Position numbers and translations under genes: made by a program
DNA from: Chloroflexota bacterium
GTDB lineage: Bacteria > Chloroflexota > Dehalococcoidia > Dehalococcoidales > JBDRCY01
Length of the DNA stretch: 64,000 nucleotides
NCBI GenBank assembly: GCA_043821265.1
Contig: JBDRCY010000015.1
Span: forward strand, 10,558 to 74,557
Reading direction: 5' to 3'
Shown: positions 6,232 through 29,807 of the stretch, one piece after another
Layout: every line of letters starts with the position of its first letter
Numbering within the stretch: position 1 is the first letter of the stretch
The notes under the pieces: model-generated
What the model was told of the DNA's origin: nothing
What the model saw: only the letters and a program-made list of their open reading frames with translations
The model's database searches: none

Positions 6232-6235
6232 CCGG

Positions 6236-6787
6236 CTACAGGCCGAGGCTATCGGCAACCGGCTTCATGGCCGCCAGCCCCAGGGCAATGAAATCATCAA
6301 GCTCCAGGCCGATTTCACTGCACTGGCCAATCTGCTGCCTATCGACACTGGCGGCAAAGGCCTTTTCCTTGAATCTCTTCTTCACCGATTTAAGGAGAAG
6401 GTCCGCCAGCTTCTTATCGGGGCGAACCAGGGCGGCGGCGATAATCAGGCCGGTCAGCTGGTCAGCACAAAACAGGGCCTTATCCAGCGTGGTCTCCCGG
6501 GGTACGCCATGGGTCTCGTTGTGCGACAGAATGGCATGGGCCATGGCCTCACTGGCCCCCATCTCCCTGACCAAATCAGCCCCCAGCTTACTATGGGTGC
6601 TCATATCCCCATCGGTAAGCTCCATATCGATGTCATGCAATAGCCCGGTGAGACCCCACTCCTCCTCGTCCTCGCCCAGTCGCCGGGCGAGAGCCCGCAT
6701 AATGGCCTCGGTAGCCAGCATGTGCTTTATCAGGTTCTCACTGCCCACATTGACACCGATGGAATCAAGGGCTTCTTCCCGGGTCAT
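6236..6787 (-). CDS. HD-domain (HDIG-type) metal-dependent phosphohydrolase
   Basis: 183 aa with an H...HD motif (GLLHDIDME) and a downstream SHNETHG. Its start overlaps the MFS stop by 4 nt, consistent with an operon. Confidence 0.65.
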   Translation of the reverse strand: MTREEALDSIGVNVGSENLIKHMLATEAIMRALARRLGEDEEEWGLTGLLHDIDMELTDGDMSTHSKLGADLVREMGASEAMAHAILSHNETHGVPRETTLDKALFCADQLTGLIIAAALVRPDKKLADLLLKSVKKRFKEKAFAASVDRQQIGQCSEIGLELDDFIALGLAAMKPVADSLGL

Positions 6788-8049
6788 AGACCCTCCCCCT
6801 TAGTAGCTATCGGTTTCAGCATCACGGAGAATATCATAGCAACAACCGCCAGGGCTATGCAAATCAGGAAGGCCCAGATATAACTACCCGTTATATCAAA
6901 GATGCGACCACCCAACCAGGGACCAACGGCACCACCCAGAGTGGCGATAAAGAGACTAACCCCCAGGATAGAGGCCAGGGAAGCCAGCCCGAATAGCTCA
7001 GCGGTAAACACCGACATGAATACCACCAGCCCACCGTAAGCGATGCCGAAGATAGCGGCGAAGAGGTAAAGCCTCCAGACCTCCCTGGCGAAAACGGGCA
7101 GCAGGAAAGCGGCCACTATCACCATAAAACAACCGACCAGCAGGCGCTTGTTGCCCAGCCGGTCACCCATGGTCCCCAATAACACCCGGCCCACAATGCC
7201 CCCCAGGCCGATAATGAGCACAATATTGGCCGCACTGGTCCTGGGAATTCCGATATCGGTAGCATGAGAAAAGAGATGCGTCATAACAATCTGCATAAAG
7301 AAGGTAAAGCAGAAACCGACAGTGCAGAGGAAAGCGAACTGCCGGGTACGAATTGCCTCCCGCAGGGAAAGACCCCTACTCTGTATATTTACGCCACCTC
7401 CCCGGGCCTCCCCGGAGCCATATGCCACCTGACCCATACGCTCTGGATTAGCCCTTAAGAACTGGGCCGCTACCGGAAGCAGCACCAGTGTCGCCGCACC
7501 GATGATGATATAGGAAAACTGCCAGTCATAGGCATTAATGAGGCGAGTGGCTATCGGGGCCATAATCGCGGTGCCCAGCCCGCTGCCCGCCAGGACAATA
7601 CCGGCCACCAGCCCCCGGCGCTTAACAAACCACCGGGAGATAGTGGCTATAATCGGCGGAGTACTGCCGCACATGCCAAAGGCGATAAACACACCGTAAA
7701 TACCATATAGCTGCCAGATAGCGGTGACCCGGGACATCAGCAAATAGCCCACGCCCAGGACGACGCCGCATACGGTTACCACCAACCTCGGCCCCAGCCT
7801 GTCACACAGCGGGCCCACGAAGATATACATGATAGCATGAGCCACCATATAGACCGTGATGGCACCGGCAGTCTGCCCCCTCTCCCAGCCGTAGCCAATC
7901 TGTATCGGCTTCAAGAAGACGCCAAACGAATAGTAGGTGCCGAACATGACCAGCATGACCAGGAAGGCAATACCTACTATCACATAGCCATAGAAAAAGC
8001 GGGAGTGCCCACTCCCCGCCGCCGACGGTGCTTTATTATCCTCAGTCAC
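6784..8049 (-). CDS. MFS transporter (oxalate/formate antiporter-like)
   Basis: 421 aa, about 12 hydrophobic segments, MFS-like loop motifs (GPLCDRLGPR, GTMGDRLGNKR). Confidence 0.8.
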   Translation of the reverse strand: MTEDNKAPSAAGSGHSRFFYGYVIVGIAFLVMLVMFGTYYSFGVFLKPIQIGYGWERGQTAGAITVYMVAHAIMYIFVGPLCDRLGPRLVVTVCGVVLGVGYLLMSRVTAIWQLYGIYGVFIAFGMCGSTPPIIATISRWFVKRRGLVAGIVLAGSGLGTAIMAPIATRLINAYDWQFSYIIIGAATLVLLPVAAQFLRANPERMGQVAYGSGEARGGGVNIQSRGLSLREAIRTRQFAFLCTVGFCFTFFMQIVMTHLFSHATDIGIPRTSAANIVLIIGLGGIVGRVLLGTMGDRLGNKRLLVGCFMVIVAAFLLPVFAREVWRLYLFAAIFGIAYGGLVVFMSVFTAELFGLASLASILGVSLFIATLGGAVGPWLGGRIFDITGSYIWAFLICIALAVVAMIFSVMLKPIATKGEGL

Positions 8050-8070
8050 AAGTCCCCTTCCTTTCGGTCC

Positions 8071-10917: not shown

Positions 10918-10948
10918 AGCTCTCTACTACCCTTCCTGAAATCAGTTA

Positions 10949-10978
10949 ATTGTAGCACCGGGCGCGCCGGGACAACAA
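10949..10978 (-). promoter_or_regulatory. Candidate sigma70-type promoter for uvrA (-35 TTGTTG, 18-nt spacer, extended -10 TGcTACAAT)
   Basis: The minus strand reads TTGTTG-tcccggcgcgcccggtgc-TACAAT, about 30 nt upstream of the uvrA ATG. Confidence 0.4.
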
Positions 10979-11045
10979 ATAAATACTCCCGGGATAAGCT
11001 GGCCGACGAGTAATCCAAGATGTTCACACCGAGGATAAATAAGGG

Positions 11046-11402
11046 CTAAGCGCGCCCGTAGTCGTCCTGGACCCTGACCACATCCTCCAGCTCCGGAGTG
11101 GACACCTCCAGCAGGGTGGTATCCTCTATGGCCTGAAGACGGTGCCTGGTAAAAGGGGGAATTCTCACACAGTAACCGGGCTCAGCTACAGTAGATACCA
11201 TCTCCCCATCGCTCCCCTCCACCTCCATCAGCGCCTTACCCTGGTAGATGTACATGCTCTCATCCTTTTTCTCATGGTACTGGAGGCTGAGGCGGTGGCC
11301 TCTGGCAATAAAGATTACCTTGCCCACATACTTTGGCGTACGGGCAAACAGCAGTTCAAAGCCCCAGGGCTTCTCTGTCTTTTGGGGAAGTTTATTTGCC
11401 AT
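11046..11402 (-). CDS. Cupin-domain protein (type II phosphomannose isomerase C-terminal cupin-like)
   Basis: 118 aa. KPWGFE...GKVIFIARGHRLSLQYHEKKDE...G.A matches the mannose-6-phosphate isomerase type II cupin signature. It lies next to the phosphomannomutase gene. Confidence 0.7.
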   Translation of the reverse strand: MANKLPQKTEKPWGFELLFARTPKYVGKVIFIARGHRLSLQYHEKKDESMYIYQGKALMEVEGSDGEMVSTVAEPGYCVRIPPFTRHRLQAIEDTTLLEVSTPELEDVVRVQDDYGRA

Positions 11403-17553: not shown

Positions 17554-18597
17554 TCAAACTATACCCTTCAGCCCCTGCTCATACGGTTCCCTTATTATAC
17601 CCCTTTCGGTGATGATGGCGGTGATGTAGCGGTGGGGGGTAACATCGAAGGCGGGGTTGGCTGCCACAATACCTTCGGGGGCAATGCTCACCCCCTGAAT
17701 ATGGGTCACCTCGCCAGTGCTGCGCTGCTCGATGGTGATTTCATCACCCGAGGCCAGCGCCCGGTCAACGGTAGTGGTGGGAGCGGCGATATAGAAGGGT
17801 AAATTATTCTCCCTGGCCAGCACCGCCAGGGTATAGGTGCCTATCTTGTTGGCCGCATCGCCATTGGCCGTAATCCTGTCGGCACCCACCAGCACACAGT
17901 CTACCTGCCCGCTTTTCATAAAATAGCCCGCCATGGAGTCGGTAATCAGGGTAACCGGAATATCCGCCCTCCTCAGCTCCCAGGTGGTAAGACGCGCCCC
18001 CTGGAGGAGAGGACGGGTCTCACCAGCCAGCACCTCCACCCTCTTGCCCTGCCGATGGGCCTCTATTATCACCCCCAGGGCGGTACCATAACCGGCGGTA
18101 GCCAGGGGGCCGGCATTGCAATGGGTAAGGATGGTGAAGCCGTCACCGATTAAATCAGCCCCCAACTGGCTCAGCCTTTCCGTGGCCTCGACCTCCTCCG
18201 CCTGTATGGCGGCAGCCTGAGAAATGAGCGCCTCTTTGATTTCGTCAATATTCTTACCGGTCCGGGCGGCGCTCTCCATGCGCTCGATGGCCCGGAACAG
18301 GTTTCGGGCGGTGGGCCGGGTGGCGGCAATGATCTGGCTTACCTGATGAAGCTTATTCCGGAAATCATCGGGTGAGCCGGCCTCTATCTCGCGGGCACCG
18401 AGAACGACGGCATAGCCCGCCGCCACCCCGATGGCCGGAGCACCCCGTATCTTTAATTCCTTGATGGCCGCAGCCAGGCTACGGTAATCATCAAGCTCAA
18501 GGTAGACCTCTTCATGGGGCAAGCGGGTCTGGTCGATAATCCTTACCCGGTCTCCCAACCACTCGATAGGCGGAACACTAACTAAGCCCACTATCAC
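17554..18597 (-). CDS. mtnA: S-methyl-5-thioribose-1-phosphate isomerase
   Basis: 347 aa, eIF-2B alpha/beta/delta-like. IIDQTRLPHEEVYLEL, IRGAPAIGVAA, THCNAG.LAT, VGADRI.ANGD.ANKIGTY. Confidence 0.9.
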   Translation of the reverse strand: MIVGLVSVPPIEWLGDRVRIIDQTRLPHEEVYLELDDYRSLAAAIKELKIRGAPAIGVAAGYAVVLGAREIEAGSPDDFRNKLHQVSQIIAATRPTARNLFRAIERMESAARTGKNIDEIKEALISQAAAIQAEEVEATERLSQLGADLIGDGFTILTHCNAGPLATAGYGTALGVIIEAHRQGKRVEVLAGETRPLLQGARLTTWELRRADIPVTLITDSMAGYFMKSGQVDCVLVGADRITANGDAANKIGTYTLAVLARENNLPFYIAAPTTTVDRALASGDEITIEQRSTGEVTHIQGVSIAPEGIVAANPAFDVTPHRYITAIITERGIIREPYEQGLKGIV

Positions 18598-18709
18598 TAC
18601 CCCCTAATAAAGGAGACTGGCAGTTCCAACACGCTGGAGCCTCCCCCGTCTCAGGATACCGAGAGGCCGCTTAAACTGCCAGCCGAGATTGCTTCTAACC
18701 GGCCTACGT

Positions 18710-20281
18710 TTACATAGGTATTATGCCGTGCTTCTTTTTCGGCCTCTCCTCCACCTTGCCCATCAGGGCTTCCAGCGCCTTTATCAGAATCGGCCTGGTC
18801 TGTGCCGGGTCAATGACATCATCGACATGCAAATCGGCGGCGGACCGATAGGGATTGGCGAACTTCTCCCGGTATTCCCTTATCTTCTGCTCCCGGGCCT
18901 GTGCCGGGTTCTCGGCATTCTGTATATCCTTGCGGAATATTATTTCGGCTGCGCCCTCCGGCCCCATGACCGCCAGCTCACTGGAGGGCCAGCAGAACAC
19001 CAGGTCGGTCCCCATTTCCTTACCGCCGGTGCCCTCGTAGGCACCGCCATAGGTCTTGCGGATGGAAACGGTTATCTTGGGCACCGTCGCCTCGGCATAG
19101 GCAAAGAGCGTCTTGGCGCCGTGGCGGATGATGCCACCCCACTCCTGTTTGGTCCCCGGCAGGTATCCGGGCACATCAACCAGATTGATGAGGGGGATAT
19201 TAAAGGCATCGCAGAACCGGATGAAGCGAGACGACTTATCACAGGAATTAATATCCAGGCACCCGGCCTTATACATCGGCTGATTGGCCACCACGCCCAC
19301 CGTCCAGCCATTCAGCCGGGCGAAACAGGTGATAATGTTGCCAGCGAACAGCGGGAACACCTCGAAGTAGTTCTGCTTACCATCCGTCCTCTGGTCGAAT
19401 ACCCGGCTGATTATTTTATGCATATCATAGGGTTTACGGGGATTGAAGGGAACAATATCAAACAGGGTGTCGTCGGTGCGCTCCGGCGAGTCCCCCCAAT
19501 CGACCCGGGGCGGTACGTCCCTGTTGCTCAAGGGCAAATAGCCCAGCAGCTCCTTTATGTTCTGGAAACACTCCTCCTCGCTATTCTCAGCGCGGCAGGC
19601 CACGCCGGCCTTCTTCTGGGCAGTCACCGCCCCACCCAAGTCCTCCTCGTTGACCTCCTTCCACATAACCGCCGCAATCACCCGCGGCCCGGTGATGAAG
19701 GCATGGCTTATCCCCTTGACCATGAAGATGAAATCCATCAGGGCCGGCGAATATACGGCGCCCCCGGCACAGGGGCCCACGATGGCGCATATCTGCGGTA
19801 TTACCCCGGAGGCCCAGGTGTTGCGCTTAAACATCTCACCGTAGCCGCAGAGCCCCTCCACACCGTCCTGAATCCGGGCGCCACCGGAGTCGTTAATGCC
19901 GATAACCGGGCAACCGACCTTCATGGCGGCATCCAGCACATCGGCTATCTTCTTGCCGTGTATCGCCGAGAGGGTACCCCCCATGCTGGTAAAATCCTGG
20001 GAGTAGACAAACACCTTGCGGCCGTCTACCTTGCCGTATCCGGTAATCACGCCATCGGCCGGTACGTCGGGATAAGAGGTGCCCCGGTTCTTGGCAAACA
20101 TCCCCAACTCCTGGAACGTCCCCTCATCCAGCAACAGGTCAATTCTCTGCCGCGCGGTCAGCTTGCCCCGCTTCTTCTGGCTTTCGAGGCGCTTCTCGCC
20201 CCCCATGCCCAATATCTCCTCCCGGCGTCTCTTGAGATCGGCTAACTGATTATCCTTACCCTGTTTCTCTAGCTTGTCCAT
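18710..20281 (-). CDS. Acyl-CoA carboxylase carboxyltransferase subunit (propionyl-CoA carboxylase beta / methylmalonyl-CoA carboxyltransferase 12S type)
   Basis: 523 aa. KLTARQRIDLLLDEGTFQE, DFTSMGGTLS, GPCAGGAVYSPALMDF, PKITVSIRKTYGGAY. Confidence 0.9.
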   Translation of the reverse strand: MDKLEKQGKDNQLADLKRRREEILGMGGEKRLESQKKRGKLTARQRIDLLLDEGTFQELGMFAKNRGTSYPDVPADGVITGYGKVDGRKVFVYSQDFTSMGGTLSAIHGKKIADVLDAAMKVGCPVIGINDSGGARIQDGVEGLCGYGEMFKRNTWASGVIPQICAIVGPCAGGAVYSPALMDFIFMVKGISHAFITGPRVIAAVMWKEVNEEDLGGAVTAQKKAGVACRAENSEEECFQNIKELLGYLPLSNRDVPPRVDWGDSPERTDDTLFDIVPFNPRKPYDMHKIISRVFDQRTDGKQNYFEVFPLFAGNIITCFARLNGWTVGVVANQPMYKAGCLDINSCDKSSRFIRFCDAFNIPLINLVDVPGYLPGTKQEWGGIIRHGAKTLFAYAEATVPKITVSIRKTYGGAYEGTGGKEMGTDLVFCWPSSELAVMGPEGAAEIIFRKDIQNAENPAQAREQKIREYREKFANPYRSAADLHVDDVIDPAQTRPILIKALEALMGKVEERPKKKHGIIPM

Positions 20282-20683
20282 TTAATGCTCCACCAGTTCA
20301 ATGAGTATCTTGGTCGCTTTGGGGTGCAGGAAAGCCACCTTGCTACCCCCGACGCCGGTCCTCGGCTCATTGTCCACCAGGGGGATATCCTTGGACTTTA
20401 GCGCCTCCAGGGCCGCCTTGACATCATCGACCTCCAGGGCGATATGATGTATGCCCTCGCCCTTCTTCTCGATATATTTAGCTATCACTCCCTCCGGCGA
20501 TGTGGACTCGATGAGCTCAATCCGGCTATTACCCACCGGGATAAGCGCCGCCTTGGCCTTCTGCTCCTCCACAATCTCCGTCTCTATATGCTCCGGGTCC
20601 AGTCCCAGGATGAGAGCATACGGCTTCATGGCCTCCGCTACATCCCTAACGGCCACCCCGATATGGTCAATTTTTACGCGCAT
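20282..20683 (-). CDS. mce: Methylmalonyl-CoA epimerase (VOC/glyoxalase fold)
   Basis: 133 aa. IDHIGVAV.D...A...Y...[23 protein letters not shown]. Its start overlaps the 3' end of the upstream MCM small-subunit gene. Confidence 0.85.
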
Positions 20684-21086
20684 TAGCCTTCGCCTCCATA
20701 TTCGTCTTGATAAATTCGCTGATACCGGTAAGCGAGGTGCCCGGCCCGAATACCATGGCGATACCCGCCTCTTTCAGCCGGGGAATGTCCTTATCGGGTA
20801 TAATACCCCCGCCGATAAACATGATGTCCTTATCGGCCTTCTCCCTGATAAGCTGCACCGTCCTGGGGAATAATGTCAGATGCGCTCCAGAGAGGCAACT
20901 GAGCCCCACCACATCCACATCCTCCTGCAGGACGGCCTCGGCAATCTGCTCCGGGGTCAGCCTAAGACCCAGGTAGACCACTTCCATCCCGGCATCCCTC
21001 AGGCCCCGGGCCACCACCTTGGCCCCCCTATCGTGCCCGTCTAAGCCCGGCTTAGCTATCAATACCCTTATCTTTTTACCTTCCAT
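20667..21086 (-). CDS. Methylmalonyl-CoA mutase, small B12-binding subunit
   Basis: 139 aa. [34 protein letters not shown] contains the DxHxxG cobalamin-binding motif. Confidence 0.9.
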
Positions 21087-21121
21087 ACTAGACCTCGCTA
21101 AGTTTTATTCAGTAACCCGGA

Positions 21122-22735
21122 TTAGAGAAAACTGGGCTCCCGGTATTCGCCAAATACATCCCGCAGGGCATCGCTTATCTCGCCAATGGTGGCATAGGTC
21201 TTAACCGCCTCAATGAGCACCGGCATGATATTCTCGTCGCTCCTCTTGGCCACCTCGCGGACCCGGGCCAATGCCTGCTCCACCTGCTTATTATCACGCT
21301 CCCGGCGGAGTTTTTCCACCCTCTTTACCTGCTTCTCCTCCACCGTCTGGTCAAGCTCAAAGAGTTCGGGGGTAACATCCCCCTCCACCGTAAACTTATT
21401 CACGCCGACAACCACCTGCTCACCCGACTCAACCGCCTTCTGGTAATCATAGGCCGAGCGGGCCAGTTCCTGCTGAACATAGCCCTTCCTGACCGCCTCC
21501 AGGGCACCACCCATCTCGTCGACCTGCTTAATATAGCGGAATATCCCATCCTCAATATGGTTGGTCAACCACTCCATATAATAGGAGCCGGCCAGGGGGT
21601 CAACGGTATCGGCGACACCGCTTTCATAAGCGATAATCTGCTGTGTCCTTAGGGCTATCTGTACCGATTCCTCGGTGGGCAGGGACAGCGCCTCGTCATA
21701 CGAGGTAGTGGCCAGCGACTGGCAACCGCCCAGCACACAGGCCAGGGCCGAGATGGTGGTGCGGACAATGTTATTCAGCGGCTGCTGGGCCGTCGAGGTA
21801 AAACCGTCGTTCTGCACATGGAACCGGAACATCATCGAACTCGGGTTCCGGGCACCAAACCTCTCTTTCATTATCCTGGACCAGGCGCGGCGCATAGCCC
21901 GGAACTTGGCTACCTCCTCTATGAGGTTGGTATAACAGGCCAGCATAAAGGAGAACTGGGGGGCAAAAGAATCGACCTGCATGCCCTTATCCAGCATCGC
22001 CTGCACATAGGCAATCCCGTCAGCCAGGCAGAAGGCGGCTTCCTGAATGGCGGTGGCCCCCGCCTCCCGCATGTGGTAACTGCAGATGCTGATGGAATTC
22101 CACTTCGGCATATGCTCCGCACAGTAGCAACAGAGGTCGGTGGTCAACCGCATCGACGCCCCCGGCTCAAAGACATAGGTATTGCGGGCGATATACTCCT
22201 TCAAGATATCATTCTGCACCGTCCCCCTCATCTGGCTGGTATCCGCCCCCTGTTTCTCAGCGGCGGCGATATACATGGCCATGGCGATGGCTGCCGTGGC
22301 ATTGATGGTCATCGAGGTGCTCACCTCAGCCAGCGAAATACCGTCCCACAGCCGCTCCATATCCTGAAGAGAGTCTATCGCCACCCCACACCGGCCCACC
22401 TCGCCGCGAGACATGGGGTGGTCCGAATCATAACCAATCTGCGTCGGCAGATGAAAGGCGACACTGAAGCCGGTATTCCCCTGCTCATACAGGTACTTAT
22501 AGCGTTTATTTGTCTCCTCCACCGTGGCGAACCCGGCGTACTGGCGCATCGTCCACAGCCGGCCCCGGTAGCCCGTCGCCCGGACACCCCGGGTAAAGGG
22601 GTATTCTCCGGGGAGTCCATTATCCGCCTTGGCCCCGGCCAGGTCATCCTGAGTATATGTCCGCTTAACCTCGGTGCCATCGACGGTAGTGAAGAACTTC
22701 TCTTTCCTCTCCTCTGCCTTCTTCGCTTCGGCCAT
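21122..22735 (-). CDS. Methylmalonyl-CoA mutase, large catalytic (TIM-barrel) subunit
   Basis: 537 aa. [45 protein letters not shown], and [12 protein letters not shown] motifs of split-type MCM. Confidence 0.9.
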
Positions 22736-22772
22736 TACGCGCCTACCTCCTATCTATCCCTGGTGACATTCC

Positions 22773-23537
22773 CTAACCGGCCTCCGGTGACGGCTTTGGC
22801 TTCTGCCCGCGCTTCTCTATCTCCCGGTAAAGCTCGGCGATGCCGATATTATTCACCGCCTGGGTGATAATAACCGGTGGCTCTACCCCCCTGGCGCCGG
22901 TAACAATCCCCTTACCAAGTTCCAGGGCCATATTCTCCGCCCCCTCGCGGTCGCCCTTGTTAACCACGACGATATCGGCAATCTCGACGAAGCCGGCCTT
23001 CATGAGCTGGATGCCATCCCCGAACTCCGGCACCAGCACCACCACCACCGTATCCGCCAGCTTGATAACCTCCACCTCGGTCTGGCCGACACCCACCGTC
23101 TCCACGATAACGACATCCTTACCGGAAGCGTCCAGCAGGTCAACCGCCACCGTAGCGGCCCGGCATAAGCCGCCGGAGATGCCCCGGGTGGCCATACTGC
23201 GGATGAAGACACCATTATCCATATAATGCTGCTGCATCCTCACCCGGTCACCCAGCAGGGCGCCACCACTGATATAGCTGCTCGGGTCGATAGCCACGAC
23301 CCCTACCGACAGGCCCTTGTTTCTCATAAGGGTAATCAGACCGTCAATCAGGGTGCTCTTGCCGGCCCCCGGCGGGCCGGTAATACCGACACGATAGGCC
23401 TTGCCCAGGCGAGAAGAAATTAGCTGCCTTATCTCGGGAACATCGGCACTCCCCTCCTCCACCAGACTAATAAGACGGGCGAGGGAGGTCTTGCTTCCGG
23501 CCAGCATATCTTTTACTAACGCGGGGATATCCTGCAT
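22773..23537 (-). CDS. meaB: MeaB/ArgK-type G3E GTPase (MCM chaperone), short form
   Basis: 254 aa. P-loop GITGPPGAGKSTLID, VETVGVGQ, VVNKGD. It is adjacent to the MCM subunits, and the C-terminal extension is shorter than I recall for typical MeaB. Confidence 0.85.
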   Translation of the reverse strand: MQDIPALVKDMLAGSKTSLARLISLVEEGSADVPEIRQLISSRLGKAYRVGITGPPGAGKSTLIDGLITLMRNKGLSVGVVAIDPSSYISGGALLGDRVRMQQHYMDNGVFIRSMATRGISGGLCRAATVAVDLLDASGKDVVIVETVGVGQTEVEVIKLADTVVVVLVPEFGDGIQLMKAGFVEIADIVVVNKGDREGAENMALELGKGIVTGARGVEPPVIITQAVNNIGIAELYREIEKRGQKPKPSPEAG

Positions 23538-23598
23538 ATTGAGACGTCCTAGCCCCAGCTACCATGAAATGGTGCACCTAAAGTGGCCACCGCCGGTT

Positions 23599-24465
23599 CT
23601 ATTTCTTTCCTTCCTGGCTATAATCGTAGAACCCCTTGCCACTCTTACGCCCCAGCCAGCCGGCGGCCACCATCTTCTTCATTAATGTCGGCGGCAGATA
23701 CCGCTCATCCTTGGTCTCGTCATATATGGCGCTTACCGCGGCACAGGTAACCTCAATACCGACCAGGTCCTGCAGCGCCAACTGCCCCATAGGGTGACCC
23801 AGACCCAGGGTCAGGGCAGTATCGATGTCCTCCCTGGTGGCAATGCCATCCTCCAGCATACGGATGGCATCCAGCCGGAAGGGGAGCTGCAGGCGGTTGA
23901 CGATGAAACCGGGGACGTCCGGGGCCACGATAACCGTCTTACCCAGCGTCTCGCCGAAGCTCTTACCGATTTTGACGGTCTCCTCACCAGCAGCGATGCT
24001 CTTTACCAGCTCCAGCAGCTTCATAAGCTGCGGCGGGTTGAAGAAGTGAAGCCCCAGCACCTTCTCCGGTCTATTGGTGGCATTAGCGATATCAATAACC
24101 GATAAACTGGAGGTGTTACTGGCCAGGATAGTCTTTGCCTGGCAGGCCTTGTCCAGCTCAGCGAATATCTTCTTCTTTATCTCTATATTCTCCACAGCGG
24201 CCTCTATCACCAGGTCGCAATCGGAGAAGTCCCCCATACTGGTGGTACCCTTGATGCGGGACAGGGTAGCCTCCTTCTCCTCCGGGGTAACCTTACCCCT
24301 TTCCACCCCCTTGACCAGAAAGGCCTCAATCTTGGCCAGGCCCTTATTAAGCAGCTCATCGTTTATCTCCGAAACCACCACCTGATAGCCCGATTGGGCA
24401 CAGAGCTGAGCGATACCGCCACCCATGGTCCCACAGCCGACCACTCCAACCTTTTTAATCTCCAT
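23599..24465 (-). CDS. hbd: 3-hydroxyacyl/3-hydroxybutyryl-CoA dehydrogenase (copy 1)
   Basis: 288 aa. Rossmann VGVVGCGTMGGGIAQ, HFFNPP, PGFIVNR. Confidence 0.85.
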   Translation of the reverse strand: MEIKKVGVVGCGTMGGGIAQLCAQSGYQVVVSEINDELLNKGLAKIEAFLVKGVERGKVTPEEKEATLSRIKGTTSMGDFSDCDLVIEAAVENIEIKKKIFAELDKACQAKTILASNTSSLSVIDIANATNRPEKVLGLHFFNPPQLMKLLELVKSIAAGEETVKIGKSFGETLGKTVIVAPDVPGFIVNRLQLPFRLDAIRMLEDGIATREDIDTALTLGLGHPMGQLALQDLVGIEVTCAAVSAIYDETKDERYLPPTLMKKMVAAGWLGRKSGKGFYDYSQEGKK

Positions 24466-24525
24466 TATGCTGTCCTCCCGCTAGTTTATATCACGCCTCC
24501 GGACACTTTAGCCGTCCGCCCGGCC

Positions 24526-25392
24526 CTATTTCTTTTCTCCCTGGCTATAATCGTAGAACCCCTTACCGGTCTTGACCCCCAGCCAGCCGGCAGCCACCAT
24601 CTTCCTTAGCAGCACCGGGGCAATATACTTGGGGTTCCTGGTAACCTCGTAGATAGCATCCAGGATGAAGAGGTTGGTGTCGTTACCGATAAAGTCGGCC
24701 AGGGTCAGCGGCCCCATGGGGTGATTCAATGCCCGCTGTATGCCGTTATCGATATCCTCTTTGGAGGCAATACCGGCCTCCAGCATGCGGATGGCATTGA
24801 CCAGGAAGGGCATCAGCAGACGGTTGACAATAAAGCCGGGGATATCCGGAGCGATGACCACCGTCTTACCCACCGATTCGGCGAAGCTCTTGCCAACTTG
24901 GAGCGTATCCTCGCTGGTAGCGATGCTCCTGACCACCTCGACCAGTTTCATTATCGGCGGTGGATTAAAGAAGTGTATCCCCAGCACCTTGTCCAGCTTA
25001 CCGGTCGCCCCGGCCACATCGATAACCGATAGACAGGAGGTATTGGTGGCCAGGATAGCCTCCTTACGGCAGACCTTATCCAGCTCGGCGAATATCTGTT
25101 TTTTTAATTCCATCTTCTCGATGGCCGCCTCTATTACCAGGTCGCAGTCGGCGAAATCCTTTACGCTGGTGGTACCCTTGAGACGAGCCAGGGTAGCATC
25201 CATGTCCGGCTGGGTAATCCGCTCCTTAGCCACACCCTTGGCCAGGTTGGTGCTGATTGCCCCCAGGCCCTTCTTAAGCAGCTCATCGTTTATCTCCGAG
25301 ACCACCACGTCGTAGCCTGCCTGGGCACAGACCTGAGCGATACCACCGCCCATCTGCCCGCAGCCGACCACGCCAACCCTTTTAATCTCCAT
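24526..25392 (-). CDS. hbd: 3-hydroxyacyl/3-hydroxybutyryl-CoA dehydrogenase (copy 2, tandem paralog)
   Basis: 288 aa, same length and motifs as copy 1 (VGVVGCGQMGGGIAQ, HFFNPP, PGFIVNR). The N- and C-termini are almost identical between the two copies. Confidence 0.85.
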   Translation of the reverse strand: MEIKRVGVVGCGQMGGGIAQVCAQAGYDVVVSEINDELLKKGLGAISTNLAKGVAKERITQPDMDATLARLKGTTSVKDFADCDLVIEAAIEKMELKKQIFAELDKVCRKEAILATNTSCLSVIDVAGATGKLDKVLGIHFFNPPPIMKLVEVVRSIATSEDTLQVGKSFAESVGKTVVIAPDIPGFIVNRLLMPFLVNAIRMLEAGIASKEDIDNGIQRALNHPMGPLTLADFIGNDTNLFILDAIYEVTRNPKYIAPVLLRKMVAAGWLGVKTGKGFYDYSQGEKK

Positions 25393-25418
25393 ATTCCGGC
25401 CTCCGCAAATCTTTTATA

Positions 25419-25462
25419 ATTTACCCTTAAACTCGGGCCTATTTACCCTTAAACTCGGGCCT
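25419..25462. repeat. Perfect 22-bp tandem duplication (ATTTACCCTTAAACTCGGGCCT x2) spanning the stop codon of the enoyl-CoA hydratase gene
   Basis: Read directly: 25419-25440 equals 25441-25462. Copy 2 encodes the C-terminal ..PEFKGK* and copy 1 lies just past the stop. Confidence 0.95.
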
Positions 25463-26209
25463 TCTCTTTTCCCTGAAGGCCTGCGTCCCCTCGTCAAAGT
25501 CCTCGGTAGCCATAACCTTGTTAAACAGCAGGCTTTCCAGCTTCAGGCCTTCATCCAGAGACAGGCTGGCACCCTGGTACATGGCCTGCTTGGCGGCCCT
25601 GACCGCCAGCGGCCCGGCCTTGCAGATGGTCTCCGCCCACTTCTTGGCCGTCGGCATCAGCTCCTCCAGCGGCACCACCTCGTTCACCAGACCTATGCGG
25701 TAGGCCTCCTGAGCATCTATGCGCTTGGCCGCCAGCAAAAGCTCGGCTGCCTTGCACCAGGGAATCTGGCGCGGCAGTCTCTGGGTACCACCGCTACCCG
25801 GCATCAAGCCGATAAGTATCTCCGGCTGGCCGAACTGGGCATTCTCAGCGGCGATTCTAATGTCGCAGGACAGCACCAGTTCGCTGCCGCCACCCAGGGC
25901 CAGCCCGTTAACCGCCGCGATGAGCGGCTTCCACAGCTCCAGGCCCCGTGTTATCTGGGGCAGTACCCGCCAGGGGGTATTCTCGTTCTCCTTCATGAAA
26001 GGCAGGGTCTCATTTATATCGGCACCGGCGCAAAAGGCCTTCTCCCCGGTACCGGTGAGTATGCCCACCCACAAATCCGGGTCATCCCGGAAGTCGACCA
26101 TAGCCTCATACAGCTCCTTCTTAACCTCAAGGTTAAGCGCGTTACGGGCCTCCGGTCGATTTATGGTGAAGATAGCGATCTTACCCTCTTTTACGTAATC
26201 GACAGCCAT
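25439..26209 (-). CDS. Enoyl-CoA hydratase (crotonase family)
   Basis: 256 aa. FCAGADI, ALGGGSELVLSCDIRIA, FGQPEILIGLMPGSGGTQRL. Confidence 0.87.
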   Translation of the reverse strand: MAVDYVKEGKIAIFTINRPEARNALNLEVKKELYEAMVDFRDDPDLWVGILTGTGEKAFCAGADINETLPFMKENENTPWRVLPQITRGLELWKPLIAAVNGLALGGGSELVLSCDIRIAAENAQFGQPEILIGLMPGSGGTQRLPRQIPWCKAAELLLAAKRIDAQEAYRIGLVNEVVPLEELMPTAKKWAETICKAGPLAVRAAKQAMYQGASLSLDEGLKLESLLFNKVMATEDFDEGTQAFREKRRPEFKGK

Positions 26210-26235
26210 GATTTACCTCCCTATTCAGTACTGAA

Positions 26236-26661
26236 TTATTTACTTACCGGCCTGAACTTATAGCAGTAGCGGGTAATCCCCTCCTGCTCGTAAAGCCGCC
26301 GGAAGACAACCTCGACGTCGGTGCCAATCTCAACCGCCTCCGGCTTGACCTCGCAATCGGTCAGCTGCGCCACTGTAAGCGGCCCTTCCTCCAGCTTGAC
26401 TATGCCCACCATAAAGGCACCGTCCATGCTCTGCTGGTCATCGAACTCACCGGGAGCGGCATAGCGGGCAATCATGGTATAGGTAAAGATTTTTCCCTTA
26501 CCACTCAGGGGAAAGTCCTCCATATTGTTTGAGTTGCACTCAGGACAAATGAGCCGTGCCGGGAAAATAATAGCGCCGCAGCCCTTGCATTTATTGCCGA
26601 CGAGCCGGTACCGGCGGTCTATTGTCGCCACATAAGCCGGTAATGTTACATAAGAAGTCAT
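26236..26661 (-). CDS. DUF35 Zn-ribbon/OB-fold protein (thiolase-associated)
   Basis: 141 aa. CKGCGAIIFPARLICPECNS zinc ribbon followed by an OB-fold-like region. Positioned after the thiolase and HMGCS-like genes. Confidence 0.75.
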   Translation of the reverse strand: MTSYVTLPAYVATIDRRYRLVGNKCKGCGAIIFPARLICPECNSNNMEDFPLSGKGKIFTYTMIARYAAPGEFDDQQSMDGAFMVGIVKLEEGPLTVAQLTDCEVKPEAVEIGTDVEVVFRRLYEQEGITRYCYKFRPVSK

Positions 26662-26671
26662 CTGTTCACCC

Positions 26672-27688
26672 CTAACTCCTGACGCTGCTCAGGAATCTCC
26701 TTTCCTTTAAATAGGTCACATAATCTATATATTCCTTGTCCTCAAGGTAGTCGGCCACCCTTTTAACCGGGGCGCTGCTGGATTTCTCTACTACCAGGCT
26801 CAGGGCATCGCTGCCCGGCCCGTAGGAGGCCAGCACTATTCTCTCCCCGACCCCGGCACTGTCCAGCACATGGGCCAGAGAGAACAGGGTGGAACAGGCC
26901 CCCAGGTTTCCCGTCTGGGGTGCCAGATTACCGGCGGCCAGCTGCTCCTTCTCGAACTTGAACCTGGCCACCGCCCGGGCCGGTGTGCGGGCATCGGGCG
27001 ACTGGATGATGACATGATTTATATCGGCAGGCTCCTTGCCTATCCTGGCCAGCAGGCCCTTGAGGGCCGCCGTAACCGACTCCTGGAAATACTGGACCCT
27101 TAGCTCATGGTCACGGGTGTACTGGTCCCAGGGCAGACGGAACCTCTCCCCATATGTCTCCGCGGCCACCGAGTAAGCACCCTCCAGCACCGCCAGTGGA
27201 CCATCGCTACCCACGATAAAGGCCGCCGCACCCGCCGCCAGGCCATGCTCCAGGTTGCGGTCGGGGGCCGCTATCGCGGCATCCGCAGCCACCGCCAGGG
27301 CATAACCGTCATCGCCGGCCCGAACCTTGTCACAGGCCGCCAGCAGGGCCGCCGTCCCCGACTTGGTACTGGCCGTAAAATCGGCCGTCCGCACATCGGA
27401 TTTAGCGCCCAGGGCCACCGCAATGGTCGGTGCCGACGGCTTATCGACATAGGGCCCGTAGGAATCGCCCAAATAAATAGCCCGAATATCTTCGGGCTTT
27501 ATACCAGACTGCGCAATGGCATTCTTGGCCGCCTCAACCGACATGGTGGCCACATCTTCATCGTATTTCGGTACCGCTTTCTCTTTCACACCGGGGGCAG
27601 CAAATGTCTCCCAGACCTTAAGGTACTCATCGGCCTTTATCCGGTACCGCGGCAAATACGCGCCATAACCCACTATGCCTACTGTCAT
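26672..27688 (-). CDS. HMG-CoA synthase-fold (archaeal-type) protein, apparently lacking the canonical catalytic residues
   Basis: 338 aa. The N-terminus VGIVGYGAYLPRYRI and the ..KSGTAAL.. block align by eye with archaeal HMGCS. The positions I expect to be GSES, ACK and HQP read GDSY, STK and IQSP. Confidence 0.6.
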   Translation of the reverse strand: MTVGIVGYGAYLPRYRIKADEYLKVWETFAAPGVKEKAVPKYDEDVATMSVEAAKNAIAQSGIKPEDIRAIYLGDSYGPYVDKPSAPTIAVALGAKSDVRTADFTASTKSGTAALLAACDKVRAGDDGYALAVAADAAIAAPDRNLEHGLAAGAAAFIVGSDGPLAVLEGAYSVAAETYGERFRLPWDQYTRDHELRVQYFQESVTAALKGLLARIGKEPADINHVIIQSPDARTPARAVARFKFEKEQLAAGNLAPQTGNLGACSTLFSLAHVLDSAGVGERIVLASYGPGSDALSLVVEKSSSAPVKRVADYLEDKEYIDYVTYLKERRFLSSVRS

Positions 27689-27713
27689 AATCTGTCTCTC
27701 CTAAGTCCGTTCG

Positions 27714-28883
27714 TTATATTTTGAGGATATGCACACAGGCCGTCCCGCCGGAGCCGCCCACATTATGCGCCAGGGCGACCTCCGCCCCCTTCACCTGCCG
27801 CTCCGGCTCCTGGGCCTCACCCCTCAGCTGATTGACCACCTCGTAGATCTGGCCGATGCCGGTGGTGCCGATAGGATGGCCTTTCGCCTTCAGGCCGCCG
27901 CTAACATTCACCGGGATGCGGCCGCCAATCTGAGTATGCCCCTCCGCAATAAGCCGGCCACCCTCACCCAGCTTGGCGAAGCCCAGGCTTTCGTAGCTGA
28001 TTAGCTCGGCAATGGTAAAGCAATCATGAACCTCGGCAAAGTCGATGTCCTCCGGCTTCATCCCGGCCTGCTCATAGGCCTGCCGGGCCGCCACCTCCGC
28101 CGCCATCAGCCGGGTCATATCCTTCCGGTCATGGATGGCCAGGTAATCGGTGCCCGACCCGGCCCCGGCTACCCATACCGGCTTATCCGTATAGTTCTGG
28201 GCCAGGTCACCGCGACAGAGGATTACCACCGACGCCCCATCGGTAACCGGGCAGAGGTCGAAAAGGCCGAAGGGATAGGCGAAATAACCGGCCGACATGT
28301 ACTGCTCCATGGTTACCTTGAAACGGAGCTGCGCCTTGGGGTTCTTGCTGGCATTAGCGTGGTTCTTGACCGATATCATCCCCAGCTGCTCCTTGGTGGT
28401 GCCATGCTCGTGCATGTGGCGCATGGCTACCATGGCGTAGATACTGGGGAAGTTGGTGCCCGCCAGTCTCTCCCATTCCACGTCTCCCGAGACCCCCAGC
28501 CAGAAGCGGTTTCTCTCCCGCGGCAGGTCGGTCATCTTCTCCACCCCACCGGCGATGACCACATCGCGCATCCCCGACTTTATCGCCATAACCGCCGCCC
28601 TGAAGGCAAAGGAGCCGGAGGCACAGGCATTTTCCACCCTGGTGGCCGGGATATAAGGGATATTGGCCTGTTCCACCATAAGGGCCGCCATGTTACCCAG
28701 CTGGTTGCCACCCGTCTGCAGGGTGCCGATATAGGCCTCCTGGATATCCTTGGGGTCTATCCCCTTATCCGCATTGGCCAGGGCATCTAAATAGGACTCG
28801 ATAAACAGGTCCTTAAACCCCTTGTCGGGGAAGGAGCCATACTTCGTCTGACCGACGCCAATCACTGCTACTTCTTTGTCCAT
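27714..28883 (-). CDS. Thiolase (acetyl-CoA acetyltransferase, SCP-x/archaeal type)
   Basis: 389 aa. Nucleophile motif VENACASGSFAF, C-terminal GGLKAKGHPIGTTG and HNVGGSGGTACVHIL. Confidence 0.87.
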   Translation of the reverse strand: MDKEVAVIGVGQTKYGSFPDKGFKDLFIESYLDALANADKGIDPKDIQEAYIGTLQTGGNQLGNMAALMVEQANIPYIPATRVENACASGSFAFRAAVMAIKSGMRDVVIAGGVEKMTDLPRERNRFWLGVSGDVEWERLAGTNFPSIYAMVAMRHMHEHGTTKEQLGMISVKNHANASKNPKAQLRFKVTMEQYMSAGYFAYPFGLFDLCPVTDGASVVILCRGDLAQNYTDKPVWVAGAGSGTDYLAIHDRKDMTRLMAAEVAARQAYEQAGMKPEDIDFAEVHDCFTIAELISYESLGFAKLGEGGRLIAEGHTQIGGRIPVNVSGGLKAKGHPIGTTGIGQIYEVVNQLRGEAQEPERQVKGAEVALAHNVGGSGGTACVHILKI

Positions 28884-28914
28884 AAATTCTCCTTACCGTC
28901 ACCAGTTTTGGGGG

Positions 28915-28930
28915 AATTAGCCCGCTAATT
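28915..28930. promoter_or_regulatory. 16-bp perfect palindrome AATTAGC-CC-GCTAATT upstream of the thiolase operon (candidate operator)
   Basis: Read directly. It lies 32-47 nt upstream of the thiolase ATG and overlaps -10-like hexamers (TAAGCT/GCTAAT) on the minus strand. Confidence 0.3.
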
Positions 28931-29009
28931 AGCTTAGCATATCAACGCCGATTTATGCAAGATGAACTCACGCCTGAAGCGCCGCCTCGGGTTGGCCTCA
29001 AATGGGCCG

Positions 29010-29597
29010 CTAAAGCCCCCGCCACAGCTCCTTAACCCTGGCCCGCAACTCGCTGAGGTCACCATCGGTATTGATGAGCACATCGGCCCGCCTGGTCCGC
29101 TCCGCCGCCGGGAGCTGAGAGCGAATGCGGGCCAGCGAATCCTCCTCGGAGAGTCCGCTGCGTTCCTTAAGCCGCTTGAGCACGGTATCCTCGGCAGCTA
29201 CCGTAACCCAGACCTCATCCACTAGCGGCGTCCAGCCGCCCTCCAGTAAAAGGGGGGCCTCCAGCACCACCACCCTGTCCCCCCGCCGCCGGTGCTCATC
29301 GAGCTGGGCCGCTACCATATCGTACATCCTGGGGTGCATTATCCGGTTTAACCGTGACAGGGCCTCCGGGCTGGCAAAAACCATCTCCCCCAGCTTTCTA
29401 CGGTCAATATCCCCGCTGGGGGTAAGGACCTGCCGTCCGAAGGCAGCCACCACCTCCCGCCATATCTCAGAGCCGGACTCGAGGGCCTCGTGGCCCACTT
29501 TATCGGCATCTATGATAACCGCACCCAGCTCGGCCAGAAACTGCGCTACCGTGCTCTTGCCACTGCCAATACCACCGGTAAGGCCAATAACCTTCAT
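29010..29597 (-). CDS. coaE: Dephospho-CoA kinase
   Basis: MKVIGLTGGIGSGKST P-loop at the N-terminus, about 195 aa. ATG at 29597 is preferred over the GTG one codon upstream. Confidence 0.9.
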   Translation of the reverse strand: MKVIGLTGGIGSGKSTVAQFLAELGAVIIDADKVGHEALESGSEIWREVVAAFGRQVLTPSGDIDRRKLGEMVFASPEALSRLNRIMHPRMYDMVAAQLDEHRRRGDRVVVLEAPLLLEGGWTPLVDEVWVTVAAEDTVLKRLKERSGLSEEDSLARIRSQLPAAERTRRADVLINTDGDLSELRARVKELWRGL

Positions 29598-29617
29598 CAC
29601 TATTAATTCCCCTAACC

Positions 29618-29646
29618 AGTCTATCGGTAAGTAATTAAGCCGTCAA
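29618..29646 (-). promoter_or_regulatory. Candidate promoter for coaE (-35 TTGACG, 17-nt spacer, -10 TAGACT)
   Basis: The minus strand reads TTGACG-gcttaattacttaccga-TAGACT, about 20 nt upstream of the coaE start. Confidence 0.5.
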
Positions 29647-29711
29647 GGGAAAAAGGCTCACCATAACCCCCTTTTTATGGTGATTATGGTGGACCCCATC
29701 CCCTATATCCC

Positions 29712-29807
29712 CAACACGAAAAGACCAAGAAGGGCGGAGGCCGCCCTAAACTACTCAACACGAAAAACGAAAAACCAAGAAGGGCGGGTGCCTGCCCTGA
29801 ACTACCC
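29712..29807 (+). repeat. Two tandem copies of a roughly 45-52 nt unit (CAACACGAAAA..CCAAGAAGGGCGG-loop-CYGCCCTRAACTAC), each containing a GC hairpin
   Basis: Read directly. Hairpin 1 is GGGCGG-AGG-CCGCCC. Hairpin 2 is GGGCGG-GTGC-CTGCCC, which forms a G-U pair only when read on the plus strand. Confidence 0.7.

Follow-up and report, generated by a model that had tools for sequence, protein, structure and literature searches.

The archaeal acetoacetyl-CoA thiolase (ACAT), HMG-CoA synthase (HMGCS) and DUF35 proteins occur as a complex, represented by the structure 6ESQ. The HMGCS of Methanothermococcus thermolithotrophicus carries an E-C-H-N tetrad comprising Glu82, Cys114, a His and an Asn, and an archaeal quadruple mutant in which the whole tetrad is replaced loses HMG-CoA synthesis (PMC12960953). 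HMGCS-fold subunits without catalytic residues have been documented in PhlA (2018; PMC6392133), in MucA (2026; PMC12960953) and in the HMGS-DUF35 protein of P. fluorescens (PMC12960953). The loss of the catalytic triad at the locus described below, which a first-pass annotation implied to be novel, thus has precedents.

PhlA and MucA belong to the three-subunit complexes PhlACB (PpATase; 5M3K/5MG5) and MucABC (SmaATase; 9VBO/9VBT), which are encoded in a type III PKS (phl) cluster and an NRPS-PKS (muc) cluster, respectively. Neither shows activity unless all three subunits are assembled, the HMGCS-fold subunit is needed only for assembly, and the tetrad of PhlA reads C-G-Q-D. On its own, the ACAT subunit is insoluble or lacks activity, and the interfacial CoA chamber is kept in the dead complexes. 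The thiolase-like subunits of PhlACB and MucABC have lost the HDxF motif and gained acceptor-binding residues.

The P. fluorescens complex (PfACAT/HMGS-DUF35) pairs a dead HMGS with an intact thiolase, and its sole activity in assays was acetoacetyl-CoA thiolysis, with synthesis of neither HMG-CoA nor acetoacetyl-CoA (PMC12960953). A motif set of Cys, HDxF and GHx marks the thiolytically active PfACAT, whereas PhlC and MucB lack HDxF (PMC12960953). In the same study, 1,030 bacterial HMGS/ACAT/DUF35 loci were counted (Liao et al., Nat Commun 2026; PMC12960953). HDxF-type thiolase-fold enzymes that rely on DUF35 are also found in BbsAB benzoylsuccinyl-CoA thiolase (7PXP), Ltp2-ChsH2(DUF35) (6OK1) and Saci_1121/1120, all from acyl-CoA beta-oxidation-like pathways; however, these systems have two components and lack an HMGCS-fold protein.

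An acyl-CoA gene cluster headed by the triad

The window analyzed here, a 64,000-nucleotide stretch of Chloroflexota DNA, contains a thiolase, HMGCS-fold and DUF35 triad at 26236-28883, all on the minus strand, with coordinates and gene order exactly as first annotated and with the family of each protein backed by Pfam and NCBIfam. The triad heads a cluster of 11 genes on one strand, separated by gaps of no more than 61 nt:

27714..28883, minus strand: SCP2/archaeal-type thiolase, 389 aa (Pfam Thiolase_N and Thiolase_C_1; NCBIfam PRK06064, 505 bits, above cut-off)
26672..27688, minus strand: HMG-CoA-synthase-fold pseudo-enzyme, 338 aa (6esq_I, E=2.4e-56; PhlA 5m3k_A, E=4.2e-43)
26236..26661, minus strand: DUF35 protein, 141 aa, zinc ribbon and OB fold (Pfam zf-ChsH2 and OB_ChsH2_C)
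25439..26209, minus strand: enoyl-CoA hydratase (crotonase), starting 26 nt after the DUF35 gene (Pfam ECH_1, E=1.5e-73)
24526..25392, minus strand: 3-hydroxyacyl-CoA dehydrogenase (hbd), paralogue 1 (Pfam 3HCDH_N and 3HCDH)
23599..24465, minus strand: 3-hydroxyacyl-CoA dehydrogenase (hbd), paralogue 2 (Pfam 3HCDH_N and 3HCDH)
22773..23537, minus strand: MeaB-type GTPase chaperone of B12-dependent acyl-CoA mutases (Pfam MeaB, E=3.1e-72)
21122..22735, minus strand: acyl-CoA (methylmalonyl-CoA-type) mutase, catalytic subunit (Pfam MM_CoA_mutase, E=5e-216; TIGR00641, 766 bits)
20667..21086, minus strand: mutase B12-binding subunit (TIGR00640, 167 bits)
20282..20683, minus strand: methylmalonyl-CoA epimerase (TIGR03081, 133 bits, above cut-off)
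18710..20281, minus strand: methylmalonyl-CoA/propionyl-CoA carboxyltransferase subunit (TIGR01117 mmdA subfamily, E=2e-222)

An independent assembly, L050 (GCA_042580345.1), has these 11 genes in the identical order. The two hbd paralogues share 63% identity, and the carboxyltransferase, whose gene is the final member of the cluster, scores 739.5 bits against TIGR01117, under the curated cut-off of 998.8. Besides the crotonase, hbd and methylmalonyl-CoA pathway genes, the neighbors of the triad include coaE. No PKS or NRPS genes occur among its neighbors in the window, and the window ORFs scanned include none of the mevalonate pathway. The triad thus stands at the head of a crotonase/hbd/methylmalonyl-CoA operon and not of a mevalonate pathway, as first annotated.

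All three proteins have chains of 6ESQ as their best solved relatives, in keeping with the originally proposed homology to the archaeal complex. For the thiolase, this is the acetoacetyl-CoA thiolase chain 6esq_A (E=5.7e-100, 338 bits); BbsB (E=3e-56) and PhlC (E=3.5e-33, 118-127 bits) are weaker relatives. The thiolase keeps Cys87 in ACASGS (codon 28623-28625), His286 in HDCF (codon 28026-28028) and His336 in GHP (codon 27876-27878), and is the predicted catalytic subunit. DUF35, the predicted bridging subunit, is closest to 6esq_E (E=3e-29), then to PhlB and the DUF35 chain of MucABC entry 9VBO, and only weakly related to BbsA (E=2.7e-4). Its translation retains the zinc cysteines Cys25, Cys28, Cys39 and Cys42, so that the active-site and CxxC...CxxC motifs first read in these two proteins are all intact.

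A Friedel-Crafts C-acetyltransferase of secondary metabolism of the PhlACB/MucABC type would comprise the same three subunits, including a dead HMGCS-fold protein, and PhlA is the second-best solved relative of the window HMGCS-fold protein (E about 1e-43; TM 0.87). This assignment is nevertheless extremely unlikely. The window thiolase keeps the HDCF motif that is absent from PhlC and MucB, by bit score it resembles the archaeal thiolase far more than PhlC, and its gene is surrounded by beta-oxidation and methylmalonyl-CoA genes rather than PKS or NRPS genes. In addition, a neighbor-joining (NJ) tree places the window HMGCS-fold protein and PhlA in different dead clades.

Catalytic columns of the HMGCS-fold subunit

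The catalytic columns were read from a full-length phmmer alignment to the M. thermolithotrophicus chain 6esq_I and from a MAFFT alignment with 120 homologs, which agree on all of them. Ser76 (codon 27461-27463) lies at the column of the Glu in G-S-E-S, Thr108 (codon 27365-27367) at that of the nucleophilic Cys in A-C-K, and Gln229 (codon 27002-27004) at that of the His in F-H-Q-P; the positions of these three codons were checked. The absence of the Glu/Cys/His triad noticed by eye in the first-pass annotation is therefore borne out in full alignments, including one to the 6ESQ complex. Asn261 is the kept Asn and the sole survivor of the tetrad. The replacement of His by Gln is common to PhlA and the window protein, whereas retention of the Asn distinguishes the latter from the P. 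fluorescens HMGS-DUF35 protein.

The AlphaFold model of the HMGCS-fold protein (pLDDT 88, pTM 0.91) has as its top Foldseek matches the HMGCS of 6ET9/6ESQ (TM 0.89), then PhlA and then MucA, over a range of TM 0.86-0.89. Since the best structural match is the archaeal HMGCS, the residue alignment cannot be put down to a different fold, and the Foldseek alignment to 6ESQ also supports the substitutions at Glu, Cys and His. Sequencing error is likewise not the cause, since the protein from the independent assembly L050, at 96% amino acid identity, carries the same residues at the catalytic columns. Glu, Cys and His are also absent in ten more relatives of 41-71% identity.

A true HMG-CoA synthase complex, whose catalytic residues would come from different positions, would agree with the NCBIfam 'equivalog' NF003274 (293 bits, above the cut-off of 244) and with the name 'hydroxymethylglutaryl-CoA synthase' that NCBI and JGI give to relatives. 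However, with 246 bits the protein falls short of the 353 required by the stricter archaeal equivalog TIGR00748, and the substitutions appear alike in the sequence alignments and the structural one. The Cys of 'AACDKV', which might have been the missing nucleophile, is Cys119; it lies off the nucleophile column and varies even inside the close clade, where the consensus is 'AxxDKV'. Together with the failure of the archaeal quadruple mutant to make HMG-CoA and the absence of mevalonate genes from the window ORFs scanned and the related loci examined, this leaves a working synthase with hardly any probability.

Among the 150 best family representatives, taken at 50% identity, the triad is absent in 134, so that the Cys-less clade whose existence was to be checked dominates the family near the window protein. 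The former Cys column in these 134 dead representatives holds T (39), L (38), P (15), A (13), G (10) or S (6), with E also occurring, and the former His column holds Q (47), Y (24) or P (19), with S, H and A also occurring. The former Glu column, by comparison, is Thr in 92 of the 134, and 82 have Asp at the former Asn column, so that some residual pocket function in the dead members is possible.

Compared with L050, the HMGCS-fold gene has a dN/dS of 0.24, the highest value in the operon, against 0.02-0.21 for neighboring genes and 0.018 for DUF35. The gene is under purifying selection; this value denotes constraint and fits a scaffold or an enzyme equally.

The first-pass annotation also considered a condensing-enzyme fold with new chemistry. 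On such a reading the polar residues Ser76, Thr108, Gln229 and Asn261 would make up an active site of a new kind, such as that of a hydrolase, an acyltransferase with a Thr or Ser nucleophile, or a non-covalent catalyst acting on 3-ketoacyl-CoA. Purifying selection, the preferred Thr and Asp at the former Glu and Asn columns, the conservation of 'STK[AS]GTAA' in the close clade and the interfacial chamber still present in solved dead complexes all speak for this idea. However, the former Cys and His columns rank only 195 and 226 of 330 in conservation, and a catalytic nucleophile would not vary in this way. In the PpATase structure, moreover, the bound substrate is contacted only by residues of the thiolase-like PhlC, the catalytic pocket of SmaATase sits in MucB, and the P. 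fluorescens complex shows thiolysis only, dependent on the ACAT His. New chemistry in the HMGCS-fold subunit is thus quite improbable.

Proposed role of the complex

The reading best supported, and a probable one, is that a pseudo-enzyme serves as scaffold in a complex built around a 3-ketoacyl-CoA thiolase, the first of the roles suggested originally. The three proteins would form one complex in which only the thiolase is catalytic. Lacking Glu, Cys and His, the HMGCS-fold subunit would neither self-acetylate nor make HMG-CoA, and would be kept by purifying selection as a structural partner. This scaffold and DUF35 would hold the thiolase in a soluble, active assembly, with the HMGCS-fold subunit probably contributing part of the shared CoA-binding chamber.

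The complex would serve as a short-chain 3-ketoacyl-CoA thiolase that cleaves acetoacetyl-CoA with CoA to two acetyl-CoA, and possibly also 2-methylacetoacetyl- or 3-ketovaleryl-CoA to acetyl-CoA and propionyl-CoA; substrate range and direction are predictions. In the pathway it would act after the crotonase and the two 3-hydroxyacyl-CoA dehydrogenases, and propionyl-CoA would pass through the carboxyltransferase, the epimerase and the B12 mutase with MeaB to succinyl-CoA.

Likeness to the P. fluorescens complex, drawn from its published description, lies in an HMGS-fold part without catalytic residues, a thiolase that keeps Cys, HDxF and GHx, and the lack of PKS/NRPS neighbors; thiolysis of acetoacetyl-CoA, the sole activity measured there, is the activity predicted here. 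The P. fluorescens example, however, is described as an evolutionary intermediate with its pathway undefined (PMC12960953), whereas the window locus heads a beta-oxidation and methylmalonyl-CoA operon. Its HMGS and DUF35 are also fused, while the window genes are separate, with a 10-nt gap, and follow the archaeal order thiolase-HMGS-DUF35. The archaeal 6ESQ complex shares with the window triad this gene order, the thiolase motifs, the zinc-ribbon/OB DUF35 and the predicted HMGCS fold, but differs in the catalytic residues and in context, which in the window is acyl-CoA catabolism. With Glu, Cys and His replaced, the exergonic second reaction that pulls the condensation is gone.

It has been reported that an archaeal ketothiolase/DUF35 pair acts as a scaffold for two further enzymes, a ketoacyl-CoA reductase and a MaoC dehydratase, which it binds to drive the unfavorable Claisen condensation (bioRxiv 10.1101/2024.07.05.601840). 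By analogy, the window complex might run in the condensing, biosynthetic direction, with the dead HMGCS-fold subunit and DUF35 as a docking platform for the downstream Hbd and crotonase, so that acetoacetyl-CoA is pulled forward (reverse beta-oxidation, butyrate or PHB-type synthesis) in place of the pull of HMG-CoA synthesis. The thiolase reaction is reversible, and the crotonase and two hbd genes lie directly downstream in the operon. This direction is nonetheless rather unlikely, given that the P. fluorescens complex cleaved acetoacetyl-CoA but made none from acetyl-CoA, that the window ORFs examined include neither an enoyl-CoA reductase nor a PHA synthase, and that relatives adjoin genes typical of catabolism. 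Acyl-CoA dehydrogenases account for 18 of 53 neighbors and PF01144 CoA-transferases for 15 of 54, although many of these loci come from few lineages (Thermoplasmata, Dehalococcoidia) and the counts are not independent observations. MaoC hydratases, hbd and ECH also adjoin relatives.

A further variant, in which the dead subunit has been re-purposed as a ligand-binding or gating module that sets the substrate range or direction of the thiolase, is unlikely. Its re-lined pocket, with Thr/Ser in place of Glu and Asp/Asn at the Asn position, would still bind the acyl/pantetheine end of a 3-ketoacyl-CoA, for example of 2-methyl-branched or C5 ketoacyl-CoAs that yield propionyl-CoA. If so, the family would represent a general 'specificity subunit' system for thiolases of anaerobic bacteria and Thermoplasmata.

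Related loci and their annotation

With a scaffold-bearing thiolase as the preferred reading, the window triad belongs to an already described type, and the case is real but ordinary; it refines the published picture usefully and is no new kind of system. One consequence concerns annotation. The window protein passes an HMG-CoA synthase 'equivalog' without the Cys, and NCBI and JGI name both it and its relatives HMG-CoA synthase. As a result, a mevalonate step could be wrongly inferred when metabolism is reconstructed from the genomes of Chloroflexota, Dehalococcoidia, Syntrophobacterales and Thermoplasmata. None of the 44 related loci scanned has HMG-CoA reductase, mevalonate kinase or any other mevalonate gene beside the triad.

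Every locus long enough to show it (44 genome and 5 metagenome loci) has a complete thiolase-HMGSL-DUF35 triad, and all tabulated thiolases of related loci keep C...HDCF...GHP. The HMGCS-fold pseudo-enzyme has been retained across long evolutionary distances. The many 'orphan' HMGS/ACAT/DUF35 loci lie within operons for beta-oxidation, CoA-transferase and methylmalonyl-CoA functions in both bacteria and archaea, and the data suggest that they are working catabolic thiolases and not idle evolutionary intermediates.

The dead HMGCS-fold family is very diverse, and its members are either stand-alone or fused to DUF35. Dehalococcoidia relatives include fused HMGCS-DUF35 proteins of about 470-490 aa, and the HMGS-DUF35 fusion is a feature of the characterized P. 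fluorescens example, though probably not of the whole group. Where HMGSL carries DUF35, the thiolase then follows in most loci.

Catalytic residues and setting of the triad

The thiolase, the HMG-CoA synthase (HMGCS)-fold gene and the DUF35 gene are separated by gaps of 25 and 10 nt, respectively, and are followed by eight further minus-strand genes, each after a gap of at most 61 nt:

27714-28883, minus strand: thiolase, 389 aa (Pfam Thiolase_N and Thiolase_C_1; NCBIfam PRK06064, 505 bits)
26672-27688, minus strand: HMGCS-fold protein, 338 aa (Pfam/NCBIfam FabH/HMGCS superfamily)
26236-26661, minus strand: DUF35 protein, 141 aa (Pfam zf-ChsH2 and OB_ChsH2_C)
Minus strand, after DUF35, in order: crotonase; two 3-hydroxyacyl-CoA dehydrogenases; MeaB
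Minus strand, then: catalytic and B12-binding subunits of a methylmalonyl-CoA-type mutase; methylmalonyl-CoA epimerase; methylmalonyl/propionyl-CoA carboxyltransferase

The catalytic residues of HMGCS are Glu, Cys and His, which with an Asn make up the E-C-H-N (ECHN) tetrad. The first-pass annotation had read the HMGCS-fold subunit as lacking the first three, and alignment to the archaeal complex bears this out. Against 6esq_I, the HMGCS chain of the solved M. thermolithotrophicus thiolase/HMGCS/DUF35 complex (6ESQ), phmmer aligns the protein over its full length (E=2.4e-56) and places Ser76, Thr108 and Gln229 in the Glu, Cys and His columns, as does a MAFFT alignment with 120 homologues; the Asn is kept as Asn261. 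The Cys of AACDKV (Cys119), flagged earlier as a possible escape, varies even in the close clade and was rejected as a substitute catalytic residue. His225 was also rejected, as it sits four positions ahead of the His column, at a site within a strand that is not constant among canonical enzymes, meaning those that keep ECHN. The AlphaFold model (pLDDT 88, pTM 0.91) indicates that the HMGCS fold is intact, its best structural matches being M. thermolithotrophicus HMGCS (TM 0.89), followed by PhlA (0.87-0.88) and MucA (0.85-0.87), the HMGCS-fold subunits of the Friedel-Crafts acetyltransferases PhlACB and MucABC.

The partner proteins keep their motifs, as previously noted. The thiolase retains Cys87 (ACASGS), His286 (HDCF) and His336 (GHP), and DUF35 has all four zinc cysteines of its CxxC...CxxC pattern. 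The closest solved relatives of both are found in 6ESQ (E=5.7e-100 for the thiolase; E=3e-29 for DUF35), in keeping with the proposed relatedness to the archaeal complex. The same gene order occurs in an independent Chloroflexota assembly (L050, GCA_042580345.1), in which the HMGCS-fold protein is 96% identical. Since dN/dS against this assembly is 0.24 for the HMGCS-fold gene, versus 0.02-0.21 for its operon neighbours, the gene is constrained rather than decaying, though under slightly weaker constraint than its neighbours.

By profile score, the Cys-less protein would pass as a true HMGCS: the NCBIfam "equivalog" for HMG-CoA synthase, NF003274, requires 244 bits, and the protein scores 293. 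In NCBI and JGI it is labelled "hydroxymethylglutaryl-CoA synthase", as are other dead relatives, meaning relatives without Glu, Cys and His (P0001, P0121, P0140, P0271, P0282-P0285). However, a true HMGCS complex is defined by the tetrad, which the window triad does not possess, and this reading is barely credible. The naming amounts to systematic mis-annotation that could give false mevalonate-pathway calls in MAGs. No mevalonate-pathway gene was found among the window ORFs scanned or the neighbours of related loci, and the crotonase/hbd/methylmalonyl-CoA setting described in the first-pass annotation holds.

Extent of the loss among relatives

None of the ten database clusters nearest to the protein (41-96% identity) has Glu, Cys or His, and canonical enzymes begin only below these. 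Among 1.84 billion 50%-identity representatives, a profile search picked out 626 at E<=1e-30, and of the best 150, 134 are dead (80 stand-alone, 54 fused) and 16 canonical. In a rough, midpoint-rooted NJ tree, whose canonical group is not strictly monophyletic, the nearest relatives of the query are all dead forms, and PhlA falls in another clade. A Cys-less clade, the existence of which had been raised earlier, is present, and the loss is old and widespread.

Among the 134 dead representatives, the former Cys column holds T (39), L (38), P (15), A (13), G (10) or S (6), and the former His column Q (47), Y (24) or P (19); the two rank 195 and 226 in conservation among 330 columns. Thr occupies the former Glu column in 92 and Asp the former Asn column in 82. 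Because the former Cys and His columns are so variable and low-ranked, the alignment argues against a conserved replacement nucleophile, and new chemistry in the dead subunit is improbable. Some canonical representatives (P0217, P0221, P0224, P0225, P0264) are ~450-500 aa long and match HMGCS from residue 115-149 onwards, which implies an N-terminal extension, possibly a DUF35 fused in the order opposite to that of the dead fusions.

Scanning a single genome for each species yielded 44 loci, all missing the Glu/Cys/His triad, with T-T-Q-D as the usual tetrad; every thiolase tabulated keeps C...HDCF...GHP. Unfused triads are found in Syntrophobacterales, one Clostridiales MAG and numerous Thermoplasmata/Methanobacteriota archaea. 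Fusions of the HMGCS-like protein to DUF35 come from Dehalococcoidia and one Methanolliviera MAG, with the thiolase next in most loci. Genes adjoining close relatives encode acyl-CoA dehydrogenase, MaoC hydratase, SDR, CoA-transferases, acyl-CoA ligase and a second mutase with a DUF35-thiolase set. Pfam counts over the two genes flanking the triad on either side, which are indicative and not independent as many loci come from related lineages, give acyl-CoA dehydrogenases (18/53), MaoC (10) and family III CoA-transferases (4) for the fused group, and PF01144 CoA-transferases (15/54), a KamA-like radical-SAM protein (9), hbd, ACAD and ECH for the unfused group.

In Dehalococcoidia/Chloroflexia MAGs (L035-L047; e.g., L041:5476-11655), the conserved order ACAD-ACAD-[HMGS-like::DUF35 fusion]-thiolase-MaoC-MaoC recalls the steroid side-chain igr/Chs operon, from which it differs by the added HMGCS-fold domain. 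In Thermoplasmata (L009, L011, L012, L021, L022, L049 and others; locus ~5200-11200), a dead T-T-Q-D triad precedes PF01144 CoA-transferase genes, two of them adjacent in L012 and L022; divergent genes upstream encode a radical-SAM protein resembling lysine-2,3-aminomutase and an archaeal SAM synthetase. This layout resembles ato (acetoacetate utilisation), and its hosts would be expected to require a genuine HMGCS as well. Lysine-2,3-aminomutase-like genes in archaea also serve osmolyte synthesis; for this reason, and because the nine Thermoplasmata loci with such a gene adjoining the triad are closely related and the gene is divergent, a link to lysine fermentation was not adopted. The contig of the 65%-identical P0005 also has a second DUF35 and thiolase pair (L001:14107-19556), immediately preceded by genes for an acyl-CoA ligase and for an MCM-like mutase and its B12 subunit; ~3 kb, including an aldehyde:ferredoxin oxidoreductase gene, lie between this pair and the dead triad.

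Published complexes and the proposed role

PhlA is an HMGCS homologue without Cys and Glu; in the PhlACB structure only residues of PhlC, the thiolase-like subunit, contact substrate, and PhlA and PhlB are probably required for assembly (PMC6392133). The MucABC structure has also been solved, and the ECHN tetrad is missing in MucA/PhlA-type proteins (Liao et al., PMC12960953). Mining of bacterial HMGS/ACAT/DUF35 loci gave 1,030, of which 1,001 lack secondary-metabolite machinery nearby (PMC12960953). One such system, the P. fluorescens ACAT/HMGS-DUF35 complex, combines a dead HMGS with an ACAT that has Cys, HDxF and GHx; it cleaves acetoacetyl-CoA, dependent on the HDxF His, and makes neither HMG-CoA nor acetoacetyl-CoA (PMC12960953). 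The ACAT subunit on its own is insoluble or inactive, and an interfacial CoA chamber persists in dead complexes (PMC12960953). By this published description, the window triad has the defining features of the P. fluorescens type, an inactivated HMGS with an intact thiolase. Friedel-Crafts acylases share the dead HMGCS fold, but are marked by HDxF loss and a PKS/NRPS context, neither of which is seen here, and such an activity is highly implausible.

The triad is probably best viewed as a thiolase complex with structural partners. The thiolase would be the sole catalyst. The HMGCS-fold protein and DUF35 would be obligate structural partners retained from the archaeal channeling complex, keeping the thiolase soluble and completing its CoA site (for the fused CoA site, see PMC6392133 and PMC12960953). 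With HMG-CoA synthesis lost, a biosynthetic channeling machine may have become a plain reversible 3-ketoacyl-CoA thiolase, acting most likely after crotonase and Hbd. Cleavage is predicted for acetoacetyl-CoA, with 2-methylacetoacetyl- or 3-ketovaleryl-CoA as a further possible substrate. The branched option is suggested by the known acceptance of 2-methyl-branched substrates by SCP2/HDCF-type thiolases and by the neighbouring carboxyltransferase, epimerase, mutase and MeaB genes, whose products would convert released propionyl-CoA to succinyl-CoA. The sequence data establish the homologies, the residue states, the selective constraint and the gene order and context, whereas the assembly, the scaffold function, the substrates and the reaction direction are inferred. 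A platform working in the condensing direction, with Hbd and crotonase docked to it much as in the archaeal ketothiolase/DUF35 fatty-acid-synthase assembly, is unlikely, though less so than new chemistry.

The sequence-level finding is real and was correctly read. This kind of system was already described in 2018 and 2026, and what is added is limited: a Chloroflexota version that is unfused and in the archaeal gene order, its place at the head of a beta-oxidation/methylmalonyl-CoA operon, the predominance of dead over canonical forms near the window protein, in archaea too, and a clear annotation trap.

A promoter and terminator scan of 18400-29800 gave counts not above shuffled expectation and was uninformative on operon boundaries. 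The two 3-hydroxyacyl-CoA dehydrogenases (24526-25392 and 23599-24465) are tandem paralogues of 288 aa each, 63% identical and kept as a pair in L050, and may differ in substrate or stereo specificity. A putative dephospho-CoA kinase (CoaE)-like gene (29010-29600), recognized by eye from its N-terminal P-loop sequence GLTGGIGSGKST, immediately precedes the thiolase on this strand with 126 nt between them, which would place a CoA-biosynthesis gene beside a CoA-thioester operon.
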